Under the pieces are notes generated by a model. The model saw only the letters and a list, made by a program, of their open reading frames with translations, had not been told where the DNA came from and ran no database searches. Shown one piece after another: positions 3,679 to 64,000 of a stretch of DNA of 64,000 nucleotides (its first letter is position 1; each line of letters starts with the position of its first letter). Made by a program: the position numbers and the translations under genes. The stretch is from Desulfuromonadales bacterium (GTDB taxonomy: Bacteria; Desulfobacterota; Desulfuromonadia; Desulfuromonadales; JAWOCM01), in NCBI GenBank assembly GCA_046483795.1, contig JAWOCM010000091.1, positions 1 to 64,000 on the forward strand. Reading direction: 5' to 3'.

Positions 3679-3720
3679 GTGCAAACCAATTATTGATGGT
3701 TCTCGTCAAAACTCTGTGAA

Positions 3721-3847
3721 TGGCTAAGCAAAAATTTCGTCCCACAAGGCAGTGGTGGTTTTTCAGGGGCGAAGGCATACATCAGGTATGTCGATGTCCT
3801 GAAAAAACGCCGTAACGCCGTGGGGCGGACTTTTTGCGACGCCATCA
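3721..3847 (+). repeat. Hairpin MITE-like element, family A, copy 1
   Basis: About 93% identical to 9500..9625 by hand alignment. About 47-nt imperfect terminal inverted repeats (TGGCTAAGCAAAAATTTCG... versus the reverse complement of ...GGACTTTTTGCGACGCCA) surround a central CATAC-N5-GTATG stem. Confidence 0.85.
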
Positions 3848-5368
3848 TCTGTCGATCTTTTCAGGTCCCTTCACGATCGCCCGGCCCGATGCCTGGCCGA
3901 TGCCCCGCAGCATGCCGTTGAAAATGAAATAATGAAAGGGGTAGACCGCTCCCCAGTAAAGAAGCCCCGCAAGGCCCCGCGGCCAGAAACGTCCCCGCTG
4001 GCGCAGCTCGACGGTTCGGTCCTCGTTCTCGCGAAGGGTCAGCTCCAGTGTCGCCTGACCGGGCAGCTTCATCTCGGCGACCAGCAGCAGCCGGTAAGGC
4101 TTGTCGACTGCAGCGACGCGCCAGAAATCGAGAGCGTCGCCGGTATGCAGATCCCGGTCGTGACGCCGGCCGCGACCGAGTCCGACGCCGCCGAAAACCC
4201 GGTCCAGAACGCCGCGAAGCTTCCACAGCCAGTTGGCGTAGTACCAGCCGGTGCGTCCTCCGATGGCGAGGATGGCAGGCCAGATCTCTTCAGCGGTACC
4301 GCTCAACACCGCCCGGCGATGGTCATCGAACACCTTGCCGCCGGCCCAGGGCGGATCTTCGGCCGTGTCCCATTCGACCAGGGTACCGGCATCGGTCCAG
4401 CGGCTTTCCACCTGCTGCTGACGGATCCGGTCGAGCGCAAGACGGATCGTCATGCGGCAGTCGAGCAGGTGTTGCGGTACCAGTTCGCGGATCCGCGTAT
4501 CGCGGCAGACGACAGGATTGCGCAGCCCCTCGGCGAGGGGGCGGGCCAGGGCGGCCGGTACCGGCGTCACCAGGTGAATCCAGTAGGAACTCAGCCGAGG
4601 CGTCAGCACCGGCACCGGGATGATCAGGCGACGGCGCAGTCCGGCCTCCTCTGCATATATCTGCATGAGCTTGCGGTAGGTGATAACCTCTTTTTGACCG
4701 ATATCGAACGTCCCGCCTGCGGTTTCGGGTTTATCGAGACAACCGACCAGGTAGCCCAGCACGTTGCGGATGCCGATCGGCTGGCAGGGGGTATCGACCC
4801 ATCGCGGGGTGATCATCACCGGCAGGCGATCCACCAGGTATCGCAGGATCTCAAAAGAAGCGCTTCCCGAACCGATAATCATCGCCGCCCGCAATACGGT
4901 GACCGGGACCTCTCCGCTAGCCAGGAGCCGGGCCACCTCAAGGCGCGATTTCAGGTGATGGCTGAGCTCCTCGCCCTCCTCCCCCAGCCCGCCAAGATAG
5001 ACGATCCGCTCCATCTGGGCCGACTCGGCAGCCGCCGCCATGTTCCGGGCCGCTTCTGCGTCGGTATCGGCAAAATCCTTGACGCCGGGGTGCATTGAAT
5101 GCACCAGGTAATAGACCGCAAAACAGCCACTGCAGGCCTGCTCGAGTGAGGATGGATCGAAGAGATCGCCGGCGACGATCTCGACATGCGGATGATCGGA
5201 CCAGGAACGGGACTGCAGCTTGGCCGGTGTGCGCGCCATCGCGCGAACGCTGTAGCCCGCCTCGAGCAGACGCGGCACCAGTCGTCCGCCGACATAACCG
5301 CTCGCCCCTGTCACCAGAACAGGTGCTTTCTTCTTTCCTTCATTTCCGCCGGTTTTCTCTGTTTCCAT
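3845..5368 (-). CDS. SDR/NmrA-type NAD(P)-binding protein with C-terminal DUF2867-like domain
   Basis: Track ORF 3845..5398. ATG 5368 (METEK...) has an AAGGGAGAG Shine-Dalgarno sequence. It carries a Rossmann motif (VLVTGASGYVGGRLV). The C-terminal half (WYYANWLWKLRGVLDRVFGGVGLGRGRR) resembles DUF2867. Confidence 0.75.
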   Translation of the reverse strand: METEKTGGNEGKKKAPVLVTGASGYVGGRLVPRLLEAGYSVRAMARTPAKLQSRSWSDHPHVEIVAGDLFDPSSLEQACSGCFAVYYLVHSMHPGVKDFADTDAEAARNMAAAAESAQMERIVYLGGLGEEGEELSHHLKSRLEVARLLASGEVPVTVLRAAMIIGSGSASFEILRYLVDRLPVMITPRWVDTPCQPIGIRNVLGYLVGCLDKPETAGGTFDIGQKEVITYRKLMQIYAEEAGLRRRLIIPVPVLTPRLSSYWIHLVTPVPAALARPLAEGLRNPVVCRDTRIRELVPQHLLDCRMTIRLALDRIRQQQVESRWTDAGTLVEWDTAEDPPWAGGKVFDDHRRAVLSGTAEEIWPAILAIGGRTGWYYANWLWKLRGVLDRVFGGVGLGRGRRHDRDLHTGDALDFWRVAAVDKPYRLLLVAEMKLPGQATLELTLRENEDRTVELRQRGRFWPRGLAGLLYWGAVYPFHYFIFNGMLRGIGQASGRAIVKGPEKIDR

Positions 5369-5444
5369 TCCACTCTCCCTTGTTTTCAGCGGTGCCATGC
5401 GCTAACTTTATGGCCGGATCATCATCGAAACAGGATCATCGCAA

Positions 5445-7749: not shown

Positions 7750-7890
7750 CTCTAACGCAAAGTCGCAAAGGGGGCAAAGCCGCAACGAAAACCGTACTAA
7801 CACACAAGCGACTTTCTTTGCGTCATGCTTTCAATCTTTGCGTCTTTGCGTTGAGACGAGCTTCTTTTGGATTATAAGTCCGTTAAAAAT
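7750..7890 (-). repeat. Hairpin element, family C (ACGCAAAG words), one-ended copy
   Basis: The reverse complement of 7805..7890 is about 90% identical to 32418..32505 (TTTTTAA..GACTTATAA.CCAAAAGAAG.TCGTCTCAACGCAAAGACGCAAAGATTGAAA.CATGACGCAAAGAAAG). The opposite arm (CTAACGCAAAGTCGCAAAGGGGGCAAAGCC) pairs with CTTTGCG words. The far terminus is missing next to the nudC stop. Confidence 0.75.
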
Positions 7891-9451: not shown

Positions 9452-9499
9452 GAAACGCAATGAGCTAATCTGTGATGCTCTTCGCAAAAGCCCGGTGGA

Positions 9500-9625
9500 T
9501 GGCTAAGCAAAAATTTCGCCCTGCAAGGCCTGGTGGTTTTCCAGGGGCGAAGGCATACATCAGGTATGTCGAGGTCCTGAAAAAACGCCGTAACGCCGCA
9601 GGGCGGACTTTTTGCGACGCCATCA
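9500..9625 (+). repeat. Hairpin MITE-like element, family A, copy 2
   Basis: Second copy of the 3721..3847 element in the same orientation. An extra TGCTCTTCGCAAAAG terminus-like word lies just upstream at 9476..9490. Confidence 0.85.
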
Positions 9626-10012
9626 ATCGGTGGTCACTTCGAACTCGGGGGAATCGAGAATCGAGCGCTTGACCGCACACTGGTCTGTGGCCCGGATAAT
9701 CGCCTTCTTGTACTTCTCCGGAAATCCCGTCGGAAGAGTGATCCGCATTGCGACCCTGGAAGGCAGCCGCGTTTCCGGATCCCGCTCCATATCCACCGAC
9801 AGTTTCAGACCCTCGGTCTCGAGCTCGCGCTGATGGCAGAAGCGGAGAGCGAAAAATCCGGCGCAGGTCCCCATAGAGGCCAGGTAGAGATCGAACGGCG
9901 AAGGGGCGCTTCCTTCGCCGCCGTTTTCCTTCGGCTGATCGGTGCGAATGGTAAACCCGTCGACGCGGGCTTCGACAGCAACGCCGCCGGGAAAAGTGAT
10001 GTCCATAGACAT
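9623..10012 (-). CDS. OsmC family peroxiredoxin-like protein
   Basis: Track ORF 9623..10036. ATG 10012 has an AAGGAGA Shine-Dalgarno sequence at 5-nt spacing. OsmC signature: GSAPSPFDLYLASMGTCAG ... ATDQCAVKRSI. Confidence 0.85.
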   Translation of the reverse strand: MSMDITFPGGVAVEARVDGFTIRTDQPKENGGEGSAPSPFDLYLASMGTCAGFFALRFCHQRELETEGLKLSVDMERDPETRLPSRVAMRITLPTGFPEKYKKAIIRATDQCAVKRSILDSPEFEVTTD

Positions 10013-10055
10013 GAGAATCTCCTTTGTGTTTTGCAATAGAGTGAAACCTGAATAC

Positions 10056-17397: not shown

Positions 17398-20300
17398 ATG
17401 GCTCTTTCACCGCCGAACTCCGGAAGAAACAATGAGACAACATCTATGAGCGAACGTCATGTTTCAACAGAAAGCTATTTCCTGTACGATCTGCAACTTA
17501 ATGCCGCTTTCTGGCGTAACAACGCTGTCGCAGGGAGATTGCGCAGCTCTCCTCCACCGCCGCTGAATTACAGCCTGAACGCCATCGCGGAGGGGCTCTC
17601 CCCGCAGCTCGACACCCCCATAGAGACCGGAAACCTGGCTCTGTTGTCGGCTCTCAACGCGGTATTCAGGCATATCAGCTGGAGCTACCTGGCCGGCAGA
17701 GAGGTGAAGGTCGAGGGTGACCACCTGGTCATCGGCAAGAGAAGGCAACGCATCGATGGGCTTTTCGACTCTTTGAAAGCCTTTGTCGTTCACTTTCCTC
17801 CGGCCGCAGTGGTTACCGGCGAAACCGACGCAGAACACTTTTTTTCCGGAGGCAAGGCGACCGATCGCCAGACCGAGGCCCTGGTCCAGATGTTCGCTCT
17901 GGCGGTCCAGTCGCGCAATCCGGCCCTGGAAGAGGAGCGTCGGTTGATCGACGACGAAGCCTTTCAGAAACAGAGCGGATATCGCCTGATACTGGAGAGG
18001 ATCGACCGCCTGTTCGGGGCGGAAACATCCCCTTCGCCATTCAACCAGTCCCTTTCTGAACTCCTCAGTCAGCCTCTGCGCCATTCGCCGGATGACCTGG
18101 TGGGTCAGGTGGCCTATGTGCGCAGCCACTGGGGGCCCTTGCTTCCCGAGGGAGTGCTGAACCAGGTGCTGACCTCTTTCGACCTCTGGCAGGAAGAGCA
18201 ACAGATACGCGGCGCCGGGCCCGGCGGACCGGCACCGGTTCCGGACTACACAGAAGTCAGGGGAACCGAAATTCGAAGGTACAGCCCCGATGCGGACTGG
18301 ATGCCGAACGTCGTACTGATGGCCAAGTCGATCCAGGTCTGGCTCGATCAACTCTCCCGAAAATACCAGCTCCACCTGCGGCGTCTCGACGACATTCCCG
18401 ATGCGGAACTGGACCTGCTGAACCAGTGGAATATCACCGGCCTGTGGCTCATCGGTATATGGGAACGCTCCCGGGCCTCCCAACGCATCAAGCAGATGCG
18501 CGGCAATCCCGAGGCAGAAGCCTCCGCCTACTCGCTCTACGACTATGTCATCGCCGAGGAGCTGGGCGGCGAGGCGGCGCTTGACAATCTTCGCGAGAGG
18601 TGTTCCCGCCGAGGCATCCGCCTGGCCTGCGACATGGTGCCCAATCACACAGGCATCTGCTCACGCTGGATCGTGGAGCACCCCGACTGGTACATCCAGA
18701 CCGACATCCCCCCCTATCCCGGTTACCATTACACGGGGCCCGACCTGTGCGAAAAGGACGAGGTCAGCGTTTTTATCGAGGACGGCTACTGGGATCACAC
18801 CGAAGCGGCTGTGACATTCAAGCACGTGGATCACCGCACCGCCAAGGAGCGGTTCATCTATCACGGCAACGACGGGACGCACCTGCCCTGGAACGATACC
18901 GCGCAGCTCAACTTTCTGCTGCCGGACGTGCGGCAGGCGGTATTGGAAGAGATTGTCGACATCGCCCGGAGTTTTTCGATCATCCGCTTCGACGCCGCCA
19001 TGACCCTGGCAAAAAAACACTTTCAACGACTGTGGTATCCCCAGCCTGGAGGAGGTGCAGGGGTCCCCTCCCGTGCGGACTTCTGGATGAGCCGTCAGGA
19101 CTTCGAGCGTGCCTTTCCCGTGGAGTTCTGGCGCGAGGTGGTCGATCGCATCGCCGCCGAGGTCCCGGACACCCTTCTGCTCGCCGAGGCCTTCTGGCTG
19201 ATGGAGGGCTTTTTCGTGCGCACCGTGGGCATGCACCGGGTCTACAACAGCGCGTTCATGAACATGCTGAAAACGGAAGACAACGCGCGATATCGCAATC
19301 TCTTGAAAAACACCCTTGAGTTCGATCCGGAAATCCTCAAGCGGTTCGTCAACTTCATGAGCAATCCGGATGAAGAGACAGCGGTCGAGCAGTTCGGCAC
19401 CGGCGACAAGTATTTCGGCGTCGCCATACTCCTCGTCACCCTGCCGGGTTTGCCGATGTTCGCACACGGGCAGGTCGAGGGACTGCGCGAAAAATACGGC
19501 ATGGAATATCCACGGGCCTACTGGGATGAATCGGTCGACGAACCGCTGCTGCTGCACCACGAAAGGATGCTTTTCCCCTTGCTGGGCCGCCGGCCCCTGT
19601 TCAGCGAGGTCGAGAACTTCGCCCTCTTCGATTTTTACACAGCCGAGGGCGTCAACGAGGACGTCATCTCCTTCAGCAACCGCCTGGACGACCAGCGGGC
19701 CCTGGTCGTCTACCACAACCGCTACGGAGAGACCTCAGGCTGGATCCGAACAGCCTGGTCACCCGGGACGGACCAAAAAAGCGGGATGGAGAACGCAACA
19801 CTGGCCTCCGCACTCGCCCTGGGCAGCGACGAGACGATCTGGCGGTTCAAAGATCATTGCTCAGGCAAGAGCTACCTGCGTAAGGGGCGTCAATTCAACG
19901 AGGATGAGTTCTTTCTCCAGCTCGGTCCCTATGAAGCGTGTGTCTTTATCGACTTCGAACCGCTCGAGGATCCCGAAGGAGAGTGGCGGACGCTCTGGCG
20001 GGAACTTGACGGCCAGCCGGCAACCGATCTCGATCGACAACGCCAGAAGCTGCGTTACAGCAACCTGCACGCCGCCCTGGTGGATACCCTCGTGGCGATG
20101 GGGACGCCGGAGAGCCTCACCGTCAGACAGCTTGCACCGCTTGTTGAAGAGCTGGAGATGCAAACGGGGCGGGAAATTGATCTCAAAGCGCTCCTCTCCG
20201 CTCTTCAGCGGGATCTCGAGCGTCTACCTGCCGAGGAGCCGCGTTATCCGATGGCCATCGCCCCGCCGCTCGTTCTGCTGCGGCATCTCGATATCGGTTT

Positions 20301-20709
20301 CGATCTGGTTTCCGATCGATTCGACCGCCTCCTTCTGGAGGCCCCCCTGTTCGAATGGCTGGCAGAGCGCGACCTACCCGTGTCTACAGCCGAGGTTGAG
20401 CGCCTGGTCGGTCTGGTGCGCTCCCTGCTGTTGTGGCAGCAATGGCTCCAGCAGAAGACACCGGACGCAGCACTGCGCTCTCTGCTTGAAGAGCCCCAAA
20501 CAAGAACACTGATCGGCTGCAATCGTTTCAAAGACAATGTCTGGTTCAACCAGGAGAGCATGGAACTCCTGCTCAACGGCATGGAGATGGCAGCGGAAAT
20601 TTTCTACCCGCCAGCCGGGGCTGTTCCCCTCGTGAGCAAGATCGATCAATATCGCACCGCTTGCCACCAGTCGGGTTACAGTCTGGGAAAATTCTTGCGC
20701 CTCTTTTAA
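17398..20709 (+). CDS. Alpha-amylase family (GH13) glycoside hydrolase/transferase, 1103 aa
   Basis: GGAAGGAA Shine-Dalgarno sequence before ATG 17398. GH13 regions: I = ACDMVPNHTG; II = IIRFDAAMTL (nucleophile Asp); III = LLLAEAFW (acid/base Glu); IV = FMSNPDEE (Asp kept, His replaced by Pro). About 330 aa at the N-terminus and about 400 aa at the C-terminus are unassigned. Confidence 0.8.
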   Translation: MALSPPNSGRNNETTSMSERHVSTESYFLYDLQLNAAFWRNNAVAGRLRSSPPPPLNYSLNAIAEGLSPQLDTPIETGNLALLSALNAVFRHISWSYLAGREVKVEGDHLVIGKRRQRIDGLFDSLKAFVVHFPPAAVVTGETDAEHFFSGGKATDRQTEALVQMFALAVQSRNPALEEERRLIDDEAFQKQSGYRLILERIDRLFGAETSPSPFNQSLSELLSQPLRHSPDDLVGQVAYVRSHWGPLLPEGVLNQVLTSFDLWQEEQQIRGAGPGGPAPVPDYTEVRGTEIRRYSPDADWMPNVVLMAKSIQVWLDQLSRKYQLHLRRLDDIPDAELDLLNQWNITGLWLIGIWERSRASQRIKQMRGNPEAEASAYSLYDYVIAEELGGEAALDNLRERCSRRGIRLACDMVPNHTGICSRWIVEHPDWYIQTDIPPYPGYHYTGPDLCEKDEVSVFIEDGYWDHTEAAVTFKHVDHRTAKERFIYHGNDGTHLPWNDTAQLNFLLPDVRQAVLEEIVDIARSFSIIRFDAAMTLAKKHFQRLWYPQPGGGAGVPSRADFWMSRQDFERAFPVEFWREVVDRIAAEVPDTLLLAEAFWLMEGFFVRTVGMHRVYNSAFMNMLKTEDNARYRNLLKNTLEFDPEILKRFVNFMSNPDEETAVEQFGTGDKYFGVAILLVTLPGLPMFAHGQVEGLREKYGMEYPRAYWDESVDEPLLLHHERMLFPLLGRRPLFSEVENFALFDFYTAEGVNEDVISFSNRLDDQRALVVYHNRYGETSGWIRTAWSPGTDQKSGMENATLASALALGSDETIWRFKDHCSGKSYLRKGRQFNEDEFFLQLGPYEACVFIDFEPLEDPEGEWRTLWRELDGQPATDLDRQRQKLRYSNLHAALVDTLVAMGTPESLTVRQLAPLVEELEMQTGREIDLKALLSALQRDLERLPAEEPRYPMAIAPPLVLLRHLDIGFDLVSDRFDRLLLEAPLFEWLAERDLPVSTAEVERLVGLVRSLLLWQQWLQQKTPDAALRSLLEEPQTRTLIGCNRFKDNVWFNQESMELLLNGMEMAAEIFYPPAGAVPLVSKIDQYRTACHQSGYSLGKFLRLF

Positions 20710-20714
20710 AAACG

Positions 20715-20844
20715 ATGCCTTCGCAAAAAGTCATCTTTTACCACCAAGGCACCAAGGGCACCAAGAAAACATCACTAAGATTCAATGGGTTACCTTTGTG
20801 TCTTGGTGTCTTGGTGGTGGATTTTCGGTTTTTTGCGAGACCAT
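20715..20844 (-). repeat. Hairpin MITE-like element, family B (CACCAAGG words), full copy
   Basis: The reverse complement aligns end to end with 63560..63685 (ATGG.CTCGCAAAAAA.CC..AATCCACCACCAAGACACCAAG.CACAAAG ... TTCTTGGTGCCCTTGGTGCCTT.GTGGT ... TTTTT.CGA). It fills the gap between the GH13 stop and the glgA start. Confidence 0.85.
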
Positions 20845-20860
20845 CATGGAGCGGCAGTCG

Positions 20861-32375: not shown

Positions 32376-32425
32376 AGGGTCCTGCGCTTGACATCCGCCA
32401 CGACTCACCTATCTTTTTAATTCAG

Positions 32426-32579
32426 ACTTATAACCCAAAAGAAGGTCGTCTCAACGCAAAGACGCAAAGATTGAAAACATGACGCAAAGAAAGGCACGAA
32501 GGGCATCCTCTTTCCCCTTTGCGTCTTTCAGTTTTCTTGGCGTCTTAGCGCTAAAGCCTTTGTTTTGGTTATAGGCCCG
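32426..32579 (+). mobile_element. Hairpin MITE-like element, family C (ACGCAAAG words), full copy
   Basis: Terminal inverted repeats are ACTTATAACCCAAAAGAAGG and the reverse complement of CCTTTGTTTTGGTTATAGGCCCG. The arms of about 70 nt are made of ACGCAAAG/CTTTGCGT words. It is flanked by the imperfect direct repeat TTTTAATTCAG (32415..32425) / TTTTAATTTCAG (32580..32591). Confidence 0.75.
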
Positions 32580-63487: not shown

Positions 63488-63559
63488 TTCGAATACTCCC
63501 TCTCTTTGCAGACAGCCGACCGGCGTCCCCAGTAGACCATTTCGCTCGAATCAAATCTT

Positions 63560-63685
63560 ATGGCCTCGCAAAAAAAACCACAATCCACCACCAAGACACC
63601 AAGGCACAAAGAAAACCCATTGATTTTTTTAATACTTTCTTGGTGCCCTTGGTGCCTTAGTGGTGACAAATGATTTTTCGAGAAT
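63560..63685 (+). mobile_element. Hairpin MITE-like element, family B, full copy with 12-bp flanking direct repeat
   Basis: 126 bp, ATGGCCTCGCAAAAAAAACC...GATTTTTCGAGAAT. The arms are made of CACCAAG / CTTGGTG words. A perfect direct repeat GAATCAAATCTT flanks it at 63548..63559 and 63686..63697; the second copy contains the proB stop codon. Confidence 0.85.
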
Positions 63686-63688
63686 GAA

Positions 63689-64000
63689 TCAAATCTTGTT
63701 CTTCAGCACCATATTGTCGCGATGCACCACCTCATCGCCGTACTTGTATCCGAGCAGCCCTTCGATCTCGGTCGAGTTGCGCCCCATGATTTTCATCATT
63801 TCAGTCAAATCGTAACCGATGACCCCTTTGGCGATCTCGACGCCGGCCAGCGAACACAACCGCACGGCATCACCGCGCTGAAAAACGCCCTCGATTTTTT
63901 TCACCCCTGAGGGCAAAAGGCTTTTTCCGCCGTCGAGCAGGGCCTGACAGGCGCCGTCATCGAGAAACAGAACCCCCTTGGGCCTGGTGAATGAAATCCA
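63689..64000 (-). CDS. proB: Glutamate 5-kinase ProB (C-terminal PUA part only; 5' end beyond the window)
   Basis: The frame is open to the window end. The C-terminal PUA-domain sequence is ...GVKKIEGVFQRGDAVRLCSLAGVEIAKGVIGYDLTEMMKIMGRNSTEIEGLLGYKYGDEVVHRDNMVLKNKI. Confidence 0.85.
   Translation of the reverse strand, partial: WISFTRPKGVLFLDDGACQALLDGGKSLLPSGVKKIEGVFQRGDAVRLCSLAGVEIAKGVIGYDLTEMMKIMGRNSTEIEGLLGYKYGDEVVHRDNMVLKNKI

Follow-up and report, generated by a model that had tools for sequence, protein, structure and literature searches.

The repeat found at the 3' ends of two unrelated genes in the window (by which we mean the whole stretch of 64,000 nucleotides that was analysed) belongs to an undescribed MITE family, abundant in Desulfuromonadales. 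Taken as a whole, the data presented below make it very probable that this MITE of about 150 bp inserts at a target resembling a stop codon, that the GA at its end rebuilds a TGA, and that the copies placed at stops, being neutral, accumulate there. The first-pass annotation of the two copies had given an account in which the MITE nature of the repeat and its target-site duplications did not figure.

Anatomy of the repeat and its assignment to the MITEs

The family is non-coding and shows a modal length of 150 bp among genome and metagenome copies, of which more than 200 were found in total, in Desulfuromonadales and related MAGs and in metagenomes. The terminal inverted repeats are about 17 bp long (left GATGC..TCGCAAAAA, right TTTTTGCGACGCCATC). 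The left end is made of two units: an outer inverted repeat, with the family form GATGC-N-YTCGCAAAAA, and an inner repeat, with the family form GATGGCTAAGCAAAAA, which is a second direct copy of the left terminal motif; the spacer CTCAGAG lies between them. Specifically, the order of the parts is duplication, outer repeat, CTCAGAG, GATGGCTAAGCAAAAA, arm, GGCATACATCAGGTATGTC, arm, TTTTTGCGACGCCATC and duplication, GGCATACATCAGGTATGTC being the family form of the hairpin apex, held between long imperfect arms. When compared with the reverse complement of the right end, GATGGCGTCGCAAAAA, the outer left repeat matches at about 13 of 16 bases, and at one locus (L070) the two are identical. Table 1 reports the coordinates of all the features mapped in the window.

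The insertions are flanked by short duplications of the host sequence. Among 65 genome copies the 6-bp target-site duplications are perfect in 21 and agree at five of the six bases in 11 more, and about ten genome copies carry duplications of 7 bp. A comparable picture was obtained with the metagenome sample, in which, among the matches listed, 32 of 94 duplications are perfect (27 of 6 bp and five of 7 bp). The duplicated sequence varies from site to site, and in the family copies it borders the outer left repeat, not the inner one. At the loci where the end base of the duplication is not A, or not T (L002, L014, L016, L039, L069, L073 and L081), both flanks deviate jointly, which indicates that the end bases belong to the host target and that the element proper runs from GATG to CATC.

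These boundaries differ from those drawn previously. In the first-pass annotation the left boundary had been placed too far in, and a 'terminus-like word' at 9476-9490 (3697-3720 in copy 1) had been described as lying just outside the element. As the first and last motifs are inverted versions of each other, and the third repeats the first in direct orientation, this word is in fact the true left terminal inverted repeat, and both copies extend to the limits given in Table 1.

In addition to the inverted repeats, the family shows duplications of fixed length, a small size with no transposase gene and many dispersed copies. Filled and empty orthologous sites were also found, at the spacer between the OsmC gene and its DUF4911 neighbour described in the next section, where the relative with the empty site is 77% identical, so that this comparison holds at the level of the gene end only. 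All the testable hallmarks of a MITE, a non-autonomous DDE-type DNA transposon, are therefore present, and the autonomous partner alone is missing: no autonomous IS bearing these inverted repeats was detected in about 1.2 Mb (the window and the first 95 loci, considering pairs 0.6-5 kb apart), and a scan of the loci fetched for inverted-repeat pairs 0.09-5 kb apart revealed an enrichment only at MITE size, 125-175 bp. The transposase would be supplied in trans and would make a staggered cut of 6-7 bp. Since several families share the same ends, one transposase seems to serve a superfamily.

Table 1. Positions of the MITE copies, their parts and the adjoining genes in the window
Feature	Position	Strand	Sequence or remark
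MITE copy 2	9474..9624	+	151 bp, GATGCTC...GCGACGCCATC; aligned to copy 1 and to >65 complete copies of the family
Copy 2, left duplication	9467..9473	+	7 bp, AATCTGT; 6/7 bases match 9625-9631
Copy 2, outer left inverted repeat	9474..9490	+	GATGCTCTTCGCAAAAG; matches reverse complement of right end, GATGGCGTCGCAAAAAG
Copy 2, inner left repeat	9498..9513	+	GATGGCTAAGCAAAAA; pairs with right end to form hairpin base
Copy 2, apical stem-loop	9552..9570	+	GGCATACATCAGGTATGTC
Copy 2, right terminal inverted repeat	9609..9624	+	TTTTTGCGACGCCATC
Copy 2, right duplication	9625..9631	+	AATCGGT, i.e. ACCGATT on gene strand
A9625	9625		First base of copy 2 right duplication; complement of stop-codon T
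OsmC stop TGA	9623..9625	-	T from host (9625), GA from element (9624-9623)
OsmC-family coding sequence	9626..10012	-	Likely product 129 aa, start MSMDITF; longest ORF to 10036
MITE copy 1	3695..3846	+	152 bp; older; alignment with copy 2
Copy 1, outer left inverted repeat	3695..3711	+	GATGGTTCTCGTCAAAA, degenerate
Copy 1, right terminal inverted repeat	3831..3846	+	
SDR/DUF2867 stop TGA	3845..3847	-	T from host (3847), GA from element (3846-3845)
SDR (NAD-binding/NmrA) + DUF2867 gene	3848..5398	-	Identical protein P0121 annotated in an NCBI Desulfuromonadales MAG
Second MITE family, copy	20714..20846	+	Same terminal repeats GATGCCTTCGCAAAAA ... TTTTTGCGAGACCATC, interior unrelated
Second MITE family, copy	63559..63690	-	Perfect 6-bp duplication AGATTT

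The second MITE family of the window has an interior rich in CACCAAGG/CCTTGGTG repeats. Its copy at 20714 begins 4 nt past the TAA stop of an ORF of 1103 aa (17398..20709), and the other end of the same copy abuts an ATG (CCATC|ATGGAG) that may be the start of a downstream gene. Further MITE families with the same inverted repeats and different interiors occur in the fetched loci, and the lone inverted repeats represent other same-ended families or internally deleted remnants. At L034 (~480-580) and L039 (~2560-2660), the right end directly follows the outer left repeat and the first part of the inner one (…GAGGATGGCGACGCCATC); these remnants are minimal 'solo-end' MITE derivatives.

Other repeats were encountered as well. 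An inverted pair of 69 nt in the window (7812-7880 and 32425-32493; 96% complementary; CTTTCTTTGCGTCATGYTTTCAATCTTTGCGTCTTTGCGTTGAGACGA...TTATAAGTC) constitutes a third dispersed intergenic repeat, with ends unlike those of the MITE studied here. In two Desulfobacteraceae MAGs (L019:1200-1400 and L076:3440-3640), an exact GGCATACATCAGGTATGTC plus CGAGG occupies the tip of a different palindrome of ~150 nt. This palindrome, with its perfect inverted repeats AGAAGTGGTTTCAAAA and with arms that differ from those of the MITE but complement each other, is either a chimera or a far-diverged relative whose best-conserved part is the apex. Finally, one clear copy of the MITE lies on a 348-kb contig of a Pedobacter MAG (L042, contig JBFWJC010000004.1), with mis-binning or horizontal transfer as possible origins. 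A blastn search of the plasmid collection with copy 2 gave no match. A coding role for the ORFs that span the element (66 aa and 71 aa through copy 2, 52 aa through copy 1) was considered and rejected, because the changes between the copies are paired changes in the arms and are non-synonymous in those frames.

Two gene ends in the window

Copies 1 and 2 are direct repeats, with 96% identity over the last 95 nt (3753-3847 and 9531-9625) and 79% over the preceding 57 nt. They lie, as originally described, in the same orientation at the 3' end of two unrelated minus-strand genes, the TCA at 3845-3847 and at 9623-9625 being the complement of TGA, and the homology between them does end at this TCA, where the ungapped alignment stops. 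The proposal that the end of the element supplies the stop codon stands for two of its three bases: the GA derives from the element, and the T (the final A of TCA) derives from the duplicated host target. The ORF at 9623..10036 (minus strand) matches Pfam OsmC over profile positions 1-99 of 100, and the ORF at 3845..5398 (minus strand) encodes an NAD-binding/NmrA domain plus a complete DUF2867 (profile positions 1-142 of 142). Both copies sit between convergent genes, with an original stop-to-stop gap of only ~13-22 nt.

At the OsmC locus, the state of the site before insertion can be read from the duplications. On the gene strand they are ACCGATT / ACAGATT at copy 2 and ACCGATT / ACCGCTT at L098, where the OsmC gene is 91% identical and the inserted copy shares 141 of 151 positions with copy 2. 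Since the mismatch falls at different positions in the window and in L098, the ancestral duplication was ACCGATT on both sides. Following the removal of the element and of one duplicate, the sequence reads ...ACC ACC GAT TAG CTC..., with a native TAG where the TGA now stands. In the window and in L096-L098 the convergent OsmC/DUF4911 spacer contains the element. L099 has the empty site: there the OsmC gene (77% identical, with the same convergent DUF4911 neighbour) ends at its own TGA, followed by 19 nt and then by the stop of the neighbour. In addition, 19 OsmC orthologues, with lengths of 127-129 aa, end at the same alignment column; the orthologue P0003 is 85% identical.

Judging from these sequence comparisons, that is, from the ancestral duplication, the empty orthologous site and the 19 orthologue C-termini, the OsmC protein is not truncated by the insertion. 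The alignment of orthologues had been put forward in the first-pass annotation as the way to detect truncated C-termini, and for OsmC no truncation is borne out. Of the two possibilities raised there, the first, by which the element targets the site directly following the final sense codon, holds in essence for copy 2 and most of the family, the native stop of the empty site being at the same position; replacement of the native C-terminus fails for OsmC, given the common end column, the empty site and the native TAG, and may apply to the SDR/DUF2867 protein, where the duplication has decayed and the tails of relatives range from -2 to +11 residues.

Copy 1 departs from the family consensus at six positions, and its duplication has decayed, the flanks ATTATT and ATCTGT matching at three of six bases. 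Most likely it arose in the same way as copy 2. The alternative is that it landed inside the 3' coding end of the SDR/DUF2867 gene, with the TGA of the element replacing a slightly longer C-terminus, and this we consider unlikely. It would agree with the unrecognisable duplication and with the naive reconstructions of the empty site, in which reading continues for 6 or 13 codons; however, reconstruction is unreliable where the duplication has decayed, as it has here. The tail that follows GPEK in the window protein is among the shorter ones (25 of 121 aligned sequences, own protein included, are as short or shorter), but the DUF2867 domain is complete, and in 120 relatives the tails after the conserved GPER motif range naturally from 2 residues shorter to 11 longer than in the window protein, so that its present length is normal. 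About a quarter of the at-stop family members yield a reconstruction with no native stop at the same position, while 70-80% of them do have one. Apart from the protein itself, the databases contained no relative with more than 70% identity to the SDR/DUF2867 protein, and the closest orthologue (70% identical) was set aside as a source of the empty site, its downstream neighbours being different.

The six nucleotides to the right of copy 1 (3847-3852, ATCTGT) are the same as the six to the left of copy 2 (9468-9473), and the likeness ends there; this shared flank probably reflects chance or target preference, not recombination between the copies. On the minus strand, the rebuilt stop overlaps an AUG in the form UGAUG (window 3845-3849 and 9621-9625), and this AUG opens a frame of ~46 codons that runs through the entire element on the gene strand. 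The frame is unlikely to be a gene, because the changes between the copies are non-synonymous in it; termination-reinitiation at UGAUG could send ribosomes into the hairpin.

Insertion at stop codons across the family

From 42 sites with good duplications, the target consensus was defined as YY|AANNTT|RR, a near-palindromic motif, and both ends of the element start with GATG. The last base of the duplicated segment is a T, with two purines coming next, and of the four triplets that T-R-R allows, three are stop codons; in a genome of ~56% G+C, a stop codon is among the better available matches to the motif. Insertion at a T|RR stop parts the T from the RR, and the T of the gene-proximal duplication, together with the terminal GA of the element, forms an in-frame TGA at the same position. 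The host protein remains unaltered, and the hairpin of 150 nt would become the start of its 3' UTR. A stop rebuilt at an unchanged position was shown for copy 2 of the window (native TAG to TGA) and for most family members. Given the near-palindromic motif and the GATG at both ends, either orientation would rebuild TGA. We infer that insertions at stops would be selectively neutral and that those in coding or regulatory DNA would be purged, so that copies would pile up on stops.

At L021 and L030 (for example, L030:3240-3430), elements are arranged end to end round one 6-bp segment, …GCGAAAGCATC|AAATTT|GATGCCTTGGC…. The junction formed by the duplication and GATG matches AANNTT|RR, which may explain clustered and nested insertions.

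The frequency of insertion at stops was assessed in two independent samples. The genome sample, obtained by scanning one genome per species with the apical 19-mer, comprises 95 stretches, almost all from MAGs of Desulfuromonadales, Geopsychrobacteraceae, 'Geobacteraceae' and Desulfobulbaceae; 75 of the 19-mer matches are accompanied by the inner and right-end motifs and are distributed among more than 15 MAGs, a single Geopsychrobacteraceae MAG contributing ~30. The metagenome sample was collected with a right-end 20-mer and comprises at least 120 stretches. Among the matches listed, the exact apex occurs in only 15 of 124 metagenome copies, and the at-stop result is therefore independent of how the copies were found.

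Right ends fall exactly on the T|GA of an ORF of at least 90 codons in 20 of 77 genome copies, 12 more being within 8 nt, and in 27 of 112 metagenome copies among the matches listed. For the left ends, the corresponding figures are 3 of 65 in genomes and 7 of 64 among the metagenome matches listed. The at-stop share thus amounts to ~25% of right ends (24-26%) versus ~8% of left ends, and to about one third of copies overall, and the asymmetry of ~3:1 is significant when the samples are combined (p = 8e-5). In the reconstructed empty sites a native stop is present at the identical position in 12-13 of 17 genome cases and in 7-10 of 12 metagenome cases, the ranges arising because, in T-rich sites, a duplication may be read as 6 or as 7 bp. 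As a null model, the same loci were scanned with a weight matrix of the target and every match outside long ORFs was counted as tolerated; 3-4% of insertions are then expected on a real stop, and the observed share lies ~6-8-fold above this value (p ~1e-10 or smaller).

Gene orientations were counted on greedy non-overlapping ORF calls, since antisense ORFs made a cruder count noisy. In tandem gene contexts the orientation of the element is balanced (12 versus 14), so that the end asymmetry is specific to the copies abutting a stop. In addition, the at-stop share does not vary with the state of the duplication (perfect, with one mismatch or decayed) or with the divergence class, and in the youngest copies it is 6 of 25 (perfect duplication) and 4 of 20 (at most two differences from the consensus). 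This independence of age agrees with targeting no less than with a slow sieving by selection, in a test that is blind to strongly deleterious insertions purged fast. The 6-8-fold excess and the right-end bias are not accounted for by the target sequence, the motif being near-palindromic and both ends carrying GATG; they hint either at selection for right-first copies, for instance through a function of the hairpin in the 3' UTR, or at polar insertion.

The former possibility would make the repeat a domesticated 3'-UTR element, whose hairpin guards the upstream mRNA against 3' exonucleases or serves convergent genes as a barrier or terminator between them, with at-stop copies retained and right-end-first as the functional orientation. 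This idea is compatible with the MITE assignment, and we regard it as possible but somewhat unlikely. The element folds as a long imperfect hairpin, strong on either strand (z = -5.0 and -6.2). Pair changes appear compensatory: the pair 28-110 is AU in 40, GC in 11 and GU in 9 copies, and between copies 1 and 2 there is a double compensatory change (CCCAC/GTGGG versus CCTGC/GCAGG). Divergence is slow, with 10 differences in 151 positions between the orthologous copies at OsmC compared to 24 in 129 third codon positions of the adjacent gene (p = 0.003). The right-end excess at stops and the placement of both window copies in very short convergent spacers also agree with it. However, the slow divergence and the 'compensatory' changes could equally stem from conversion, arm to arm or copy to copy. 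In L098, a clustered change of three bases (AGTCC to ATTTC) renders the arms perfectly complementary and looks like arm-templated repair, not like selection on single pairs. Tandem orientation, moreover, is balanced, and the element is devoid of canonical signals: neither copy contains an intrinsic terminator (a G+C-rich stem plus a U tract), the only nearby match of the terminator scan being a 5-pair stem across the junction (3837-3854, plus strand), and the sigma-70 promoter scan round both copies found none within the element. Rfam 15 gave no match at gathering score over the whole window, and a permissive scan near copy 1 returned a chance-level match only (E = 6.5). A role of the element, as a predicted 3' UTR, in 3'-end formation or mRNA stability, as initially suggested, is plausible.

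According to the latter possibility, the transposase would be actively directed to the point where translation stops, its polarity determining which end lies next to the gene; the cue might be ribosome-free nascent RNA, R-loops or the step from G+C to A+T at the end of coding regions. The excess over the motif-only null, the end asymmetry despite a near-palindromic motif and the undiminished share in the youngest copies are all in line with such targeting. Yet purifying selection in compact genomes can by itself gather the survivors between stop and terminator, the excess is overstated by a null that counts all intergenic motif matches as tolerated, and two thirds of the copies lie away from stops; we consider active targeting distinctly unlikely. 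A still stronger proposal, that of a 'stop-codon-homing' transposon with polar guidance to the end of translation beyond the DNA sequence and with a GA terminus evolved to restore stops, appears very unlikely. Lastly, a coincidental adjacency of the repeat and two stops, for which one may cite that the window holds just two copies, both in very short convergent spacers, is hardly credible and is refuted by the recurrence of the T|GATGGCG junction at the end of a long ORF, seen for 47 of the 189 right ends of the two independent samples.

Known repeats and meaning for the Desulfuromonadales

Bacterial MITEs are small, non-coding, dispersed elements with inverted repeats and target duplications, which form hairpins and reside in intergenic or 3'-UTR regions (PMC10969869, PMC3184786, PMC2229807). 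We compared the present family with Correia/NEMIS of Neisseria, ERIC of enterobacteria, RUP of pneumococcus and Nezha of cyanobacteria; like bacterial MITEs, it inserts into or beside other copies of itself. Correia, ERIC and RUP duplicate a TA dinucleotide, unlike this element, which duplicates 6-7 bp at YY|AANNTT|RR and has no sequence similarity to them. It also differs from those MITEs in having a left end with two direct copies of the terminal motif and about one third of its copies exactly on a rebuilt stop. In a limited search of the literature, no report was found of a MITE breaking stop codons behind the T and restoring them.

MIRUs of mycobacteria, which Supply et al. reportedly described in 1997, are said to be intergenic repeats that overlap, at either end, the stop and start codons of the neighbouring genes. 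They are direct tandem units of 40-100 bp inside operons, are not known to have inverted repeats or target duplications, and may couple translation via small ORFs. The present element resembles MIRUs in that its ends overlap a stop codon and differs from them in its inverted repeats and duplications, with no shared sequence.

Closer in taxonomy is Chunjie, a MITE of Geobacter uraniireducens Rf4, for which the available descriptions give a length of 178-235 bp, an A+T-rich composition, inverted repeats of 21 bp and direct repeats of 9 bp (PMC3184786, PMC10969869). The same accounts attribute to it (Chen et al. 2008) a very stable hairpin, some copies overlapping protein genes and a harmless insertion in an operon (PMC3184786, PMC10969869). 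Going by what these accounts state, our family shares with Chunjie its nature as a MITE, the broad group (Desulfuromonadales/Geobacterales) and the stable hairpin, and is separate from it by its length of ~150 bp, inverted repeats of ~17 bp and duplications of 6-7 bp.

REPs are 20-40 bp long with GTAG or CGTC heads, and REP/BIME elements and the IS200/IS605-derived PATEs are mobilised by HUH/tyrosine enzymes, without target duplications or true inverted terminal repeats (PMC3733652). As in those systems, we observe an abundant extragenic palindrome, often in 3' UTRs, and for those systems stabilisation of the mRNA has been proposed. A REP/BIME identity was rejected, the element being 150 bp long with a GATG start and duplications of 6-7 bp, as opposed to a palindrome of 20-40 bp with a GTAG or CGTC head and no duplication; the lack of duplications in those systems likewise separates it from the IS200/IS605-type palindromes.

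For the annotation of genomes, the finding implies that hundreds of gene ends in Desulfuromonadales MAGs carry a stop codon made up half of host and half of transposon bases, and repeat-masking would delete these stops. It also makes available, as a natural collection, genes that have a hairpin of 150 nt after the stop, in either orientation, and genes that lack it, by which the effect of 3'-UTR structure on mRNA fate could be studied. The excess over the sequence-only expectation and the right-end asymmetry hint at selection in the 3' UTR or at polar targeting; were the element truly to home on stops, it would be a transposon invisible to the proteome, seeding structured 3' UTRs across Desulfuromonadales genomes. 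In conclusion, insertion at a stop codon that is rebuilt from host and element bases offers a concrete route by which a mobile element can proliferate, nearly free of cost, in a compact genome.
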